This document shows, piece by piece, positions 8,920 through 35,800 of a stretch of 64,000 nt of DNA. The notes below the pieces were generated by a model. It ran no database searches. It was not told where the DNA came from and saw nothing but the letters and a program-made list of their open reading frames with translations. Source of the stretch: Octopus vulgaris (Eukaryota); contig OX597823.1 of NCBI GenBank assembly GCA_951406725.2, forward strand, positions 89,962,001-90,026,000, in the 5' to 3' direction. Position 1 is the stretch's first letter. Each line of letters opens with the position of its first letter. Both the position numbers and the translations under genes were made by a program.

Positions 8920-9330
8920 AATTTTTTCTTCTTCCTTCTCTCCCTTTCCTTCTTTTTCTTTAATACTCTTTTCAGATACAAACACACACACACACACAAG
9001 CACACACATGCACACACACACACACATGCCCTCTCTCACTTTCTCCCCATTCATTATCCTCTTGTACTATCTTATATCCCGCCCCACCACTACACACTCA
9101 ATAACACTATAAAATGGCCAAATCTTTCCACAAGAACTTAGTTCAATTTGAAAACCCCACTAAAATGGATGAAAGTGCTAATATATGATATATGATATAT
9201 GATATATGTTATATGATGTATAAAAACATGTAATATACAAATAAATATCTGTAAATATAAAACCATCCAAATTTCTGAGTACCCCATTTCTTCTTATATA
9301 AAATACCTGTACTTCATCGCCAAACCTTCT
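8920..9330 (+). mobile_element. PLE terminal-repeat copy, inverted relative to 9361-9710
   Basis: diverged reverse-complement match along ~370 bp, including the hammerhead-like motif. Confidence 0.75.
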
Positions 9331-9360
9331 AATATATATACATATATATATATATATATA

Positions 9361-29800: not shown

Positions 29801-32800
29801 GCCGTGTTTCTGTTGGGAGTTCATGGCTCAAATTAATGTTTTGAATAGGACTATATTGGTGGAGGATAGTCACATAAATGGTTTTAAAACTCTTTGTAGG
29901 TTCCTCGCTACATCCGTGTGTTAGTATCAAGTGACAATATTTGACATCATAAGCTAAGGCTGACATGGTTGACTGAACAAGTCCAAACAATCAATGCTCT
30001 GAACCTTTTCTGTCAATTTTCTGTAGAGAATGAGGAGATGATTAAGTTTATAACCTTTTGTGCGTTTCCTGCTACATCTGTACGTTAGTGTCACGTGACA
30101 GTATATTTTACGACTAAAAAGAAGGCCGACACGGTTTATTGAACATGTTTTAGTTATAATCAAATTACTCCAAATTTAATCTGTCTGGTGGAAGAGTGGA
30201 CAGAAGTCGTTTGAATATAGTCCAATGGCTGAAATTTAAGTTGTTAGCTGTTTAGTGGAAGAAAGAGTTTCGTGTGTGAATAGTTATTCGTGTGTGTACT
30301 AGTACTGGGGTCCCGTAATTGTTGTCGGTGAATAGTCAGTCTATTTCTTAGAGTAACTATTTTTCATGACCTATGTAATCGTCATTACATCCTTGGCATT
30401 TGATAGCGTATATTAAATTCCTTGAAGAAATATGTAAAGTGATTTTTAACAGTAAAAGTCTGTTCTGATTTGAATTTGTATGTTGTGTCTTCAATAATGT
30501 TGATGCAGGTCCCGCAATTGGGGCGGCCACACTTTTTGACTGTTGGTGTAGGAATTGTGGAAGGTAATTTAGCACTTGTGATAAATTCTTTGAGGGACTT
30601 TGATTGTCTTTTAATTTTTATTATTTTGTGTATTTCGAATGCTTTTTTCATTCTTGAGTCTTGTTTTAATACTGGGATGTTTCGGCGGATAATATTGTAA
30701 ACCTCTGTGTTTCTTGGGTCGTGTATTATAATAAAGGGCAGATTATTGGATGTTTCTGGAGCGTTTTTCGTTTTTCGTAGTTCTTCGATATTTATTTCTT
30801 TTGCACATTCTATTCCGTTCTCTATTAGCATTAACAGATACTGTATTTTAAGTAGTACTTGTTTTAGTTCCTGGAGTTTTTATTTTAAGACAATTGTGCA
30901 GATTCTTCTTGCTAGATTGATGGGGATATTATTCTTCAGGTGTTTGGGATGGCATCAGGAGAATAGTATATACATCCATAATAACTATTGCACTTCCATT
31001 ATCTGCTTCCTTAATTATAATTTCGTTATTGTTTTTCTTTTCATGTATAATATCCCATTCCTTTCCATTTGTATTGGACTTGATCTTAAGGTGTGGAAGT
31101 TATTCATAAGGGAAGCTTGAAATACAATCACAAAATTCATCTTACCTTTCGTAGGTTTGTCATTGCTCTTTTTTTTTACAATTGAATCGTCCTTGATTTC
31201 TTTATCGTACAATTCCTCCGTTAGGCGTAGTTTTCTACAGAATTGTGGAATGTCGTTCTGCATTTCACTGGGTGCTGCGGTGTTAGAGTAAATTTTAGAC
31301 CTTTTGACAAAACATTAATTTCTTCTATGTTTTTTTTTCGATAGTTTACTTATCTTTGGTTTGTACCATTTGGTGTCGAGAACTCTGTCGGTTAGATCTC
31401 AAAAATAATTTTTCAAAGTTTTCCTTTTATTACTATTTCTATTTATACATCAAAGGACATTTCCTCTGTTAGCTTGTGGTCTTTCTTATCGATTTTGTAC
31501 ATTTGTTTTTCTGAACTGTGTTTGTTTCTTTCTGCAATTGTCTTTTAAGTTTATATTTTTTATCCGTTGTGTAAATCTTTGGTTTTGGAGAAAGTTTTGT
31601 CCAGTCGCAGAGAAAACTTCGATTGTTTTGATTGGATTATTTTGTTGTTGAAATAGTCTTGACTTGTCCTTATGGAGTTGGTGACTATAATTTCCATATT
31701 TAGAGGTTTTATTAATCAGTTGCGAATGGGGTTTGTGGATTTTAACTTTCTTTAGGAATAGGTTCTCGGTAGAGTACTCGTTTTTAAAATGAGATTCATA
31801 ATTGGAGAACCAAAGAGCACTTCTCTCTTACCGTTGAAGAGATGTTAATTCCCCGTGTTAACATTTTTCTTTCCAAAGTTTATTGTTTTCGCGGCCTTCG
31901 GATGTTTTTGAAATTTCTGTTTGCATTTGTGTATCAATCGTTTTAAATTTTACTTCGTTGGAATTTGCTCTTGGCCATAATGGCTGGGTTTCTATTCAGA
32001 ATTTGTCGAGAACATTCTATTCTCTGAGTTTCTGTTGTTGTTCGGGTTCATCAGCGATAGGTTTTATTTGTAGTTTCAGTGGGAGGATGATCGGTTTTGA
32101 ATTGAGCCATTTTTCATATATTTCCGCTTTGCCATTATTTTTAAATGAAGTTCCAAAGGCAAATTTACGGGCTGTGAAGTTTTGGTTCCATATATGTTTA
32201 ATAGGGTTTTCGATTGCAGAGGTTTCTCGTTTCCGCTTCATGTTATCTTCTAGTTCAGCTTTCGGATTTTGTTCCGGCATCTGGGGCATCATTGTTTCTA
32301 TAGTTTGGACAACTGCTGTTTCTTCCGTTTTTCTTCCTTCTTCAAGCGTTTTCTTGGTGTAGGTCTGTATCTCGTCGATTTTGTTGGATTAGACTGTGAG
32401 CTTGGAGATCTCTTTCAGTTTTTTAGTATCTCTAGGTTCAACGTGTTTCCGCTTTGGTCGGATTTTTGTGATATTTTCGTTCCTTGTGAGGTGAGTATAT
32501 ATAGAAAACAATGATATTTTATTCCACACGAGTAGAAATATAGAAAAAAATAGAAGCTGAAAATGCATTGAGAATAGTTAAAATATTTTATATCAAAATA
32601 CTTAAAGCTTTAACCGGTTTCACATTTTACACTGAGTTTCAAAAAGTTCAAATAGAAAGACGTGGCTTATGTTGCAGCTGTTTTACTTCTGACTGGTGTT
32701 TGGAGTTTGCCCTGTTTTCATAGGAAGTTCATGGTTCCCTATAAAAACAGGGCAAACTTTAAACACCAGTCAGAAACGAGCTGGCACTTCTTCCTTTCTT

Positions 32801-35800
32801 GGGAATTTGAGAGAAGTCACATGACCCATGGTGTGTTAGGTCACGTGGTATGTGCAGTTCTTGGGCCCACTGGATCCTGTTAAACCACTGAATATATGTA
32901 TGGGACATGGACATTAAATGATTATGATGATGATGAGGAGGAGGAGGAGGAGGAGGACGAGGAGGAGGAAATCGGGAATGAAGAGGAATGAACAGTATTG
33001 CCTGTTTGAATGAACAGTAAATGTTGTTGGTGGACAATAATTCCAATGAGAATCGAAGGAATTCTTCAAAACTTCACTATTTTGAAAATAACGTGTACAG
33101 TATTGGTAGCAGATGTGATTTATTGTTTTTCTTTTTACAGTTAAAAATAGTCCATTTGAGTAACTCGATATAAAAGGAATAACATCAATGCCATTTCAAC
33201 CGTAACAAACCAGGTGATAAACACCCAGTGATAACGTACGTCAATGACATGCATAATAGCTTTTATATATATATATATATATATATATATATATATATAT
33301 ATATATATATATATATATATGTGTGTGTGTGTGTGTGTGTGTGTGTGTGTGTGTGTGTGTGTGTGCATGTGCACATATGCATACGTGCATATGAATATAT
33401 TTGTTTGTGCATTTAGGTGAGTGTGCACAATGTAAAGGAAATTATGATTTTCAATTACGACTTCAAGAAACCAACCAGCCACCTGTTCACTGATTAATGT
33501 GGTGGCCACACAAAGCAAGGTTGACTACTTTCTCACCACAAAGCAGGGAAGCTGGTTGCTTAGAAATACAAAGCCCTTCCCAGGTGAAGAGTGCTAACCT
33601 CAACATATGTTAGTTAATAGTGACTTCAGAGTTCAGGCTAGAAAGACACCAAGAAGCAAACCAGTTTGGAAAAGAAAGATTTGGAAGCCTAAGGATCCTC
33701 TGAATAGTCAGAGATTTAGAGAGATTCTAAATGAAGCATTTGGCAAGGAGGAGGAGAAGATAGTAATATATGAATAATATAGAGGACAAGTGGAGGTTCT
33801 GACGAGACTACGCAATGGGGACCACTGACCAAATTTGTGGCTGGTGCAAAGTCCTCTCCACACCTAAGGTGACATGGTGGTGGAACAGGGAAGTAGACAG
33901 GGCTATTAGAGAATATAACGGGTCTGAAAGGGCTGGAAGAGTGGTAATAGCACAGAACTATACCAGGAAGCCAGGAGGAAAGATAGAAGACAGGTATATT
34001 TAGACAGGGCAGAAGCAAAAAGGTAGAACTTTGCCAATGTTCTGCAGCATAAAGACCAGAGGCTTGTGGTGTTTCAGATTGCAAGAGAGTATGGCAGAGA
34101 AAAATCATGATGTTGTAGGAGTGAAATGTGTTTGCATGGACGATGGTTCACTTGCAGTTAGAGATTTTGCAAAGAAAGGGGCTTGGAAGTGCCACTATGA
34201 AGGGGTGATAAATGCTGTTTTTATAGGGAGTTCATGGCTCCCTATAAAAACAGGGCAAACTTCAAACACTAGTCAGAAACAAACCATGTCTTTCTATTTG
34301 AACTTTTTGAAAATCAGTGTAAATTATAAAACCGGTTAAAGCTTCAAATATTTTGATATAAAATATTTTAACTATTCTCAATGCATTTTCAGCTTCTATT
34401 TTGTTTCTATATTTCTACACGTGTGGAATAAATATCTTTGGTTTTTATATCTATATCTATCTATCTACACACACACACACACACACACACACACACACAC
34501 ACACACACACACACACACACACATGTATATATATTCTTGATTTCAAAACCGTAATCTGAATAAGATTCAGTGATATTGCGTATTTGGTGGGGTCCCTCGT
34601 ATTTATCACTCCATTTCCCCCCTTTTTCATCTTTCATTTTTATTTCCTTTTTTTACCCACCCCGTTCCCTTATTTTTCTGTGTCTTTGTCTCGTCCCCTC
34701 TGTATCTTTGTCCATAATGTTCAATAAACAACAGAGTTTGAAACCGCCAACTCGAAGTTGTCGGAGGTCTTTTTCTTCTGTTGCGAAGATATTTTGTTGA
34801 TATTTTGTTCATTTCTATTGTTGAACTCTTTTGTGTTTCTTGTTATTGTTGTAAATCTTTTATCTGCGTCGAAGCAGATTTGTTACGTTTCCACCCCCTT
34901 CATTGGATGGGGGGAATTTTAAATAATAATGACAACTAGTTTTGAAAACTTGACCTCTTCGAAGGAGGAAGATTCATTAGCTGACGCCTTATTGGAAAAA
35001 GTATTCAATTCTGGAAAAATGTTTTGAACACGCAACCAAAAATGTCACAAAACTCAATCAAAAATTTCTACTTCGCCACGGCAGCTAGTATAACTAAAGA
35101 AGACTGTAGGAATGAACTGAATAAATATAAGGGCCTATTCCAGAAGGAATGGCACAATGTGAAAGTTACTCGGCCAGAAGATGTGACCCACAAAGGAGAA
35201 CTGTGTTTTTTAAAACGTATATCATAAAAAGTTTTTAAAATCAATATGGCCTCGAAGGAGGCAATAGAAAAGTGCCTGCAGCCTATATGGAAGGACATCA
35301 CATACATCACCAGGGGGAAAAAGTTCGCCTCTGTAGAAGTAAGATTCGCCATGGGAGAAAAAGCCGAGCAGCATTCCACCTCCCCACTCAGGTCGTGAAG
35401 GTAAAAGAAATACCACCAGATGTGGATGTTGCTTAGCGGCATTGACATTGGACTTGGAGGACAAAATATCGATCCTCCGGGTCACGAATTCCACCGACAA
35501 AATTGGTAGTGATAGGGATTAGAAATGTTAAGCCAAGAAGCCCTTGCCGATTTGGATGAGATCCCCGATACTATAGTAATCGCTATAGTAATAGGCGGCG
35601 AGCTGGCAGAAACGTTAGCACGCCGGGTGAAATGCGTAGCCGTATTTCGTCTGTTGTTACGTTCCGAGTTCAAATTCCGCCGAGGTCGACTTTGCCTTTC
35701 ATCCTTTCGGGGTCGATAAATTAAGTACCAGTTACGCACTGGGGTCGATGCAATCGACTTAATCCGTTTGTCTGTCCTTGTTTGTCCCCTCTGTGTGTAG

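Follow-up and report, generated by a model that had tools for sequence, protein, structure and literature searches.

The window analysed here is a 64-kb (64,000-nucleotide) stretch of Octopus vulgaris DNA (GenBank assembly GCA_951406725.2, contig OX597823.1, positions 89,962,001 to 90,026,000 of the forward strand). It carries five short motifs, with a UUGAAAA core, that resemble the hammerhead ribozymes of Penelope-like elements (PLEs). Are these motifs hammerheads of transposable elements, and what does a U3-A8 pair in place of C3-G8 mean for such RNAs? Sequence, structural and phylogenetic comparisons suggest that the five motifs are probably decayed minimal hammerheads of type I, carried in their terminal repeats by three Neptune-like Penelope families; intact versions of these hammerheads likely cut the element RNA slowly, as dimers or aided by a protein. 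The first-pass annotation had placed the motifs (starting at 9145, 9454, 12845, 32608 and 34303) in two Neptune-type PLE families. All five were found at these sites with their cores. The assignment to terminal repeats of Neptune-like PLEs also held, but there are three families: A (9145 and 9454), B (32608 and 34303) and C (12845). Searches with the motif regions gave separate families, with 2,308, 911 and 502 first-look candidates for A, B and C, respectively.

Hammerhead motifs and their host elements

The proposed motif order, with a short palindrome after GAAA, was recovered in the family majorities, where the palindrome replaces helix III (GCGC in A, CCGG in B, RCCGGT in C, and ATAT in family E, described below). 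Two window copies depart from it, one without a palindrome and one with GTGC. The family A motif has a 2-bp helix I by its core, possibly with three more pairs past a bulge and without covariation, followed by a C·C mismatch, a 5-bp helix II, GCGC and a UA site. The minus-strand A copy (9455..9491, core 9489-9483), with U3-A8, C10.1·C11.1 and all these parts, is the only one of the five that matches its family majority over the whole motif; the other four are decayed. The plus-strand A copy (9146..9182, core 9148-9154) has four changes in helix II, and GTGC replaces the palindrome. Helix I is 2 bp in both, as the annotation had proposed; a helix I of this length was published for D. virilis (PMC4209133, in the parts consulted). 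The family B motif has a 4-bp helix I, a bulge and 8 more pairs, U·U followed by a 4-bp helix II with a GUAA loop, CCGG and a UU site. Its two window copies carry different single core changes, as had been noticed: A9C at 32636 in the minus-strand copy (32608..32646, core 32642-32636), where helix I is 4 bp plus 8 bp beyond a 1-nt bulge, and G12A at 34328 in the plus-strand copy (34303..34341, core 34307-34313), where helix II is weakened. Both deviate from the core U4 G5 A6, A9, G12 A13 A14, A15.1-U16.1, H17 with a paired 3-8, to which the majorities of A, B, C and E conform. The family C motif has a 5-bp helix I, U·U, a 4-bp helix II, RCCGGT and a UU site; its plus-strand window copy (12845..12885, core 12850-12856) keeps both helices and U·U, with TCCTT in place of RCCGGT. 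The pyrimidine mismatch at 10.1/11.1, common to all three families, had been overlooked by the annotation: C·C in 26/33 rows of A, U·U in 35/36 of B, and U·U in 36/44 of C, where six G-C rows belong to a sister lineage.

The hammerhead sits in the terminal repeat behind the endonuclease in A (loci L091 and L092), B (L097, L100 and L101), C (the window and L098) and E (L245). Each motif lies a few hundred bases past the endonuclease gene, just ahead of the tail and of open reading frame 1 (ORF1), which starts about 200 nt downstream of the hammerhead. Family A is represented by a solo decayed terminal repeat ending in (TA)n (8920..9361, plus strand; 79% to the 3' end of L092, which bears reverse transcriptase (RT) and endonuclease), and by a 3' region with terminal repeat (9342..9978, minus strand; 81% to L092), convergent with the plus-strand copy across (TA)n. 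The family C insertion is 5'-truncated and spans 11108-13029, with its ORF1 part inverted at 11101-9975. It comprises a tail with a broken ORF1 (9975..11101, minus strand; 86-87% to the ORF1 region of the young relative L165) and a frameshifted C-terminal half of the RT with a CX4CXXC linker and GIY-YIG (11108..12526, plus strand; RVT_1 E 3e-5; 85% at the amino acid level to the 753-residue frame of L165). The family B element (29807..32724, minus strand; 77-83% and colinear to L097 and L100) runs from an upstream terminal repeat through ORF1, the start of the RT, an internal gap in the RT core and the thumb, linker and endonuclease to a 3' region cut at (TA)n. An inverted B terminal repeat (34215..34456, plus strand; 84% to 32496-32750) is divergent from the minus-strand copy. 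The family B junction is duplicated in direct orientation over 66 bp (32712-32777 and 34215-34280), and the two copies bracket about 1.45 kb of other DNA between the inverted repeats. The repeats converge in the A pair and diverge in the B pair, so that neither pair can dimerise on one transcript. With four copies mutated and both pairs inverted, the window's own copies are likely inert.

The proteins of A and B share 45% and 45-49% identity, respectively, with the 753-residue frame of L165, and those of C share 79-85%. The L165 frame matches RVT_1 (E 4e-7) and GIY-YIG (E 0.0016) and has the CCHH cysteines and histidines; A and B were assigned by homology. The C-terminal GIY-YIG, the CX2-5CXXC linker, the (TA)n insertion and the inverted 5'-truncated copies resemble Neptune and Nematis in the passages of Craig et al. 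(2021, PMC8557442). The linker in A, B and C is CX4CXXC with a spacer of about 24 residues, which, compared by eye with the rows of Fig. S2 of that paper, is long as in Neptune; the spacer of family E is short as in Nematis. In a quick tree built without named references, A, B, C and their relatives were grouped (SH-aLRT 93), and family E formed a separate group with its own relatives (99). A, B and C are likely Neptune-like, the clade name coming from the comparison by eye. The youngest C lineage has a mean divergence of 0.4% among seven RT-endonuclease frames, and its ORF1 is 367 residues long. At A, B and C loci of 3 kb, 10/10 pairs of neighbouring repeats are divergent; the young C relative has two direct and six divergent neighbour pairs, and in its full copies L165 and L171 the direct repeats are separated by 4,617 bp.

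The motifs might instead be chance matches in AT-rich repeats, multiplied by transposition, and TTGAAAA and GAAA are indeed frequent words in this DNA. A loose descriptor gave five matches in the window against a shuffle mean of 0.66, and 0/200 shuffles reached five; it was tuned to the window motifs, so that the window copies are not independent. These matches are four of the five motifs (12845 was missed) and an unrelated one at 14080. In each of the three families, a typical terminal repeat of 260 nt contains the hammerhead, whereas its shuffles did so in 0-2/3000 cases; for family A the excess appears only with a helix I of 2 bp. The motif keeps its position even in families whose proteins share only 45-49% identity with that of the young family, and helix changes in the C lineage are compensatory. 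On the side of chance, a strict descriptor was failed by four of the five window copies, the 9454 copy passing only with helix I set at 2 bp. The same descriptor found no U3-A8 motif in 80 evenly spaced 10-kb stretches (800 kb). Chance is, on balance, a highly improbable explanation. The comparison with shuffled DNA called for by the annotation gave an excess in the window and at the level of the repeats, but no enrichment of U3-A8 across these 800 kb. There, the strict descriptor found C3-G8 five times, G3-C8 once and an unpaired U3/C8 once (30 shuffles, mean at most 0.07 per class), and homology searches matched A twice, B once, C zero times, four C3-G8 repeat families 13, 11, 5 and 5 times, and E nine times. 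These counts indicate that U3-A8 motifs are a minority of the genome's hammerheads. As had been predicted, CUGANGA searches miss the variant core, and no hammerhead family was among the Rfam matches listed, for the window or for two intact motifs.

Covariation was analysed in nine C-lineage copies chosen for intact motifs, the window copy among them. Paired cells made up 91.9%, 4/11 pairs were changed on both sides, and the score was 0.376, compared with 0.186 for shuffles (0/500) and at most 0.164 for slid alignments. The expected helix covariation was therefore seen as a score above both controls, but the number of double-changed pairs was not above shuffles (220/500), and helix I of A had none. 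In the C sister lineages (84-89% to the window endonuclease), U3-A8 is kept next to a G10.1-C11.1 pair, both helices differ in sequence, and position 7 is A, C or U. The helices of B are supported by folding and one wobble variant only. Frequent non-CpG variants within the motifs mostly keep pairs or fall at free positions: N7 in A, G-C to G·U in helix I of B, and two wobbles in C.

State of the 3-8 pair across families

Core states were counted by exact patterns with positions 3, 7 and 8 free. U3-A8 was found in 60/64 B copies, in 93/100 C copies among the matches listed (of 129; none C3-G8), and in 100/100 copies of the C2 and young sister lineages among the matches listed (of 912), where position 7 is A, C or U. 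The remaining core positions are alike in the A, B, C and E majorities. These counts bear out the view that U3-A8 is a family trait and not decay. Fixation of the variant core, as first claimed, applies to B, C and the young C relative, but not to A, in which subfamilies with U3·G8 or C3-G8 have multiplied as well. That U3-A8 is a tolerated natural variant, which the annotation had stated, agrees with the literature. Natural U3-A8 covariation and a stem II beginning with U10.1·U11.1, ranked as the mismatch that is best tolerated, appear in the passages of Perreault et al. (2011, PMC3088659). A U3-A8 descriptor, about 1,300 Schistosoma matches and a UUGAAAA core in a Cercyon element appear in those of Cervera and De la Pena (2014, PMC4209133). 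U3-A8 in PLEs is not new; it is extended here to octopus Neptune-like families, and CUGANGA descriptors undercount such motifs. In the rows of PMC4209133, as read from the PDF text, U·U at 10.1/11.1 accompanies C3-G8 in Hydra and D. willistoni, and U3·G8 occurs in one Saccoglossus row.

In family A, the copies with C3 (n=58) have G8 in 51 cases and A8 in seven, of which six are explicable as CpG decay. Those with U3 have A8 in 63 and G8 in 37 cases (100 among the matches listed, of 355; counted by hand). Most C3-G8 copies form their own subfamily, 16/16 sampled copies falling in one clade (support 0.94), and the U3-A8 and U3·G8 copies intermingle on the tree. Distances from the group majority are 0.076 for U3-A8 (n=10), 0.048 for U3·G8 (n=14) and 0.049 for C3-G8 (n=16). 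Among the C3-G8 copies, 62/71 carry C at position 13, a departure from the core at A13, and 8/71 have an intact GAAA. The counts thus suggest that each of the three paired states (C-G, U·G and U-A) spread in A, unlike C·A, and that a source with a broken core spread too. Family A likely carries a weakened hammerhead on which constraint has relaxed. Fixation of U3-A8 in A, suggested by samples of top matches (30/33), was overturned by the exact-pattern counts.

A further hammerhead (24359..24409, core 24366-24372, plus strand) turned up in the descriptor scan, inside the interval covered by the first-pass annotation but absent from it. It has G3-C8, an extra G, G10.1-C11.1, a 5-bp helix II, ATAT, a UU site and a 7-bp helix I, and helices I and II are both present in its predicted fold. 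It belongs to the 3' region and terminal repeat of a 5'-truncated Nematis-like element, family E (23327..24549, plus strand; 79-86% to the 3' end of L245). An exact 23-letter pattern of this family gave 4,666 matches and none in the control; 95/100 among the matches listed are G3-C8 and none is C3-G8. The contigs of four sequencing runs with four organism labels contained no core variant of family E at 5% or more, and the helix variants listed in them were of CpG type or U-A to U·G (8-16%). The contig ends formed no pile-up, a signal that contigs as such are unable to show. Non-CpG subfamily variants within the motif all lie in loop 2 (3/3). Family E has both an extra nucleotide following A9 and G10.1-C11.1 (G-C in 78/81), in line with the published minimal-hammerhead consensus (over 80%, with exceptions; in the parts of PMC4209133 consulted), whereas A, B and C have neither. 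A loose genome-wide pattern for G3-C8 was uninformative, with about 304,000 matches against 216,000 in the control.

Copies of family E run upstream into a 671-residue frame of RT with a C-terminal GIY-YIG (L245), with a CX3CXXC linker and a 6-residue spacer that is Nematis-like by eye. Homology to the C-type protein extends across RT and endonuclease (probability 99.3), and the frame had no Pfam match. On these sequence features, family E likely belongs to a Nematis-like element that is autonomous; the frame with its C-terminal endonuclease led to the rejection of two other readings, a Naiad end and a non-autonomous repeat. In the RT of family E (L245) and its relatives, motifs 3 and 4 are separated by a long insertion, although the endonuclease is C-terminal. 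Insertions of that kind are described for Naiad, Chlamys and some Coprina in passages of Craig et al. (2021), and none is seen in the Nematis rows of their Fig. S1 (PMC8557442). A young family of the same genome, 58% identical to E, has C3-G8 in the same position and C at position 9. Among 20 metagenome loci examined, five have the motif at the same position, four with C3-G8 and one with A3·G8. The C3-G8 state of the relatives suggests that G3-C8 is likely a derived double change in family E. Beside the family E hammerhead, the window has a branch-point-like ACTAAC, a pyrimidine run and an AG at 24325-24345 (plus strand), about 25 nt upstream of the G3-C8 core, and nearly all E copies share it. 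An intron 3' end next to the hammerhead has reportedly been published for the D. virilis Penelope. A second, decayed E copy (61854-61971, plus strand) has lost two core letters; an intact one lies just beyond the window end (L181:1693).

Taken together, these states suggest a broader, tentative reading, whose chances seem somewhat short of even: the Penelope elements of one genome may have run the 3-8 pair through every workable state, with U-A in the Neptune-like clade, a U·G wobble step in subfamilies of A, and G3-C8 fixed in the Nematis-like family E, with its 4,600 or more copies and C3-G8 relatives. If the G3-C8 RNA cuts, a core previously described only in an engineered mutant with partial activity would be at work in a natural ribozyme, and subfamily copy numbers would be an in vivo read-out of the core changes tolerated by a retroelement. 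The natural-variant section of Perreault et al. (PMC3088659) contains no G3-C8, no C·C mismatch and no joint changes in amplified retroelement families. Literature passages on G3-C8 gave only engineered cases, the main kinetic papers and Lunse et al. (2017) lying outside their coverage. A search for octopus hammerheads found nothing on the subject at the level of titles and listings. Main-text passages of a 2026 preprint (10.64898/2026.07.22.740005) have no mention of octopus, and those of three reviews (PMC6765202, PMC2920678 and PMC10085705) add nothing further on 3-8 variants.

Proposed cleavage and dimerisation, and a possible structural role

Intact B, C-lineage and E RNAs would cut after position 17, either through palindrome pairing in a tandem transcript or through folding by a protein. 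The palindrome after GAAA may pair two ribozymes of a tandem transcript to form helix III, and the tertiary contact that holds nucleotide 8 in position would be U3-A8 instead of C3-G8. Cutting could then trim unit-length RNA out of read-through transcripts. C3 and G8 pair in the cleavage-ready fold (PMC3884650, relevant passages), and minimal Penelope hammerheads are described as cutting weakly, only as dimers or with an extended helix III (passages of PMC4209133). In two-copy folding, the palindrome was paired between the strands for B, C and the young family, and not for A or E.

Like the minimal hammerhead ribozymes Sm3 and Sm4 of Schistosoma mansoni (in the parts of PMC4209133 consulted), which are among the closest known systems, the octopus motifs are of type I, sit in a terminal repeat, lack a stable helix III and have a palindrome after GAAA. 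They also share the U3-A8 core (UUGAAAA in the Sm4 row), inverted pairs 100-700 bp apart and mostly single truncated copies. Unlike that set, the octopus hosts are linker-bearing and Neptune-like, and Fig. S3 of the paper has no cephalopod row. In the anole Poseidon element PAc (Frangieh et al. 2024, PMC11167929, passages), the hammerhead likewise lies in the terminal repeat upstream of the tail, and its 3-8 pair was tested: the ribozyme needs the element's protein, and an engineered C3G/G8C partly restores cleavage. The core of PAc is C3-G8 and its reading frame begins inside the ribozyme, whereas ORF1 of the octopus elements starts further downstream and E has the swap naturally.

Several observations weigh against cleavage. 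In passages of the anole study (PMC11167929), hammerhead mutants did not impair insertion of the element in vitro, and no RNA-seq reads ended at the hammerhead site. The predicted lowest-energy fold of family A buries the core, its dimer fold is without a hammerhead, its motif combines the 2-bp helix I with C·C, and its C3-G8 subfamily amplified with C13. A pair-breaking variant of helix II is present in 6/35 B copies, and helix III of the youngest C relative contains an additional A. The covariation in C comes from few lineage events in rows picked for intact motifs, and its double-changed pairs did not exceed shuffles. A very young Nematis-like family (L352-L381; 99% identical copies, frames up to 1,312 codons) has C for A at position 9 (16/16 in the cluster). 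The hammerhead of this family has a non-palindromic GAAC after GAAA.

Such observations would fit an explanation in which the fold is kept mainly as a structural signal, for protein binding or for positioning the RT template, while cutting is dispensable and core variants spread with an active source. The variants that amplified (C13 in A, C9 in the young cluster, U3·G8 in 37 of the 100 U3 copies listed for A, and the 10.1/11.1 pyrimidine mismatches) and the insertion independent of cleavage in vitro (PMC11167929, passages) are consistent with it. Cervera and De la Pena also left other functions open in the parts of PMC4209133 consulted. However, the 3-8 contact belongs to the cleavage-ready fold (PMC3884650, passages), yet it is paired across lineages, as U-A in B and C, G-C in E and C-G in the relatives of E. 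C3·A8 is rare in A (7/58 C3 copies, nearly all attributable to CpG decay), and the remaining core positions are identical in the four majorities. A mainly structural role is regarded as unlikely, and slow, assisted cleavage by the intact hammerheads is preferred. These families may help to show what hammerheads do for Penelope elements: a young U3-A8 family with intact frames and direct repeats, sister families with mismatched helix II bases, amplified sources with core changes that should impair cutting, and a G3-C8 family are ready constructs for asking if retrotransposition needs cleavage.

Other hammerhead repeats and features of the window

Further U3-A8 hammerheads were noticed in the genome. 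Family H (L214:1915-1971, L275:7457-7513 and L309:2181-2237; 1,460 candidates) has an extra G, G10.1-C11.1 and an AT palindrome, and tblastn linked no protein to it. A truncated piece of a hammerhead repeat family, I, lies at 62936-63013 (plus strand); the family is also seen in L087 and L089, and two of three fuller copies have an intact U3-A8 core. Family G, which is Neptune-like (L105:2840-2893 and L176), has a 2-bp helix II, with U3-A8 in one copy and U3·G8 in the other. The 3' halves of two C3-G8 hammerhead repeats present elsewhere in the genome are found at 13059-13126 and 28728-28789 (both plus strand).

An endonuclease with a CxCx5C linker, of the Hydra type in passages of Craig et al. 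(PMC8557442), is encoded at 63430-63900 (plus strand) and at L181:501. Its family has a canonical CUGAUGA hammerhead with a long insert in helix II, and young full copies with direct repeats (L178 and L180). The plus strand of the window also has a GC-rich long interspersed element (54534-57894) with apurinic/apyrimidinic endonuclease and RT frames, which we take to be RTE-like, and frame pieces at 44919-46430 that presumably resemble exons of a membrane transporter.

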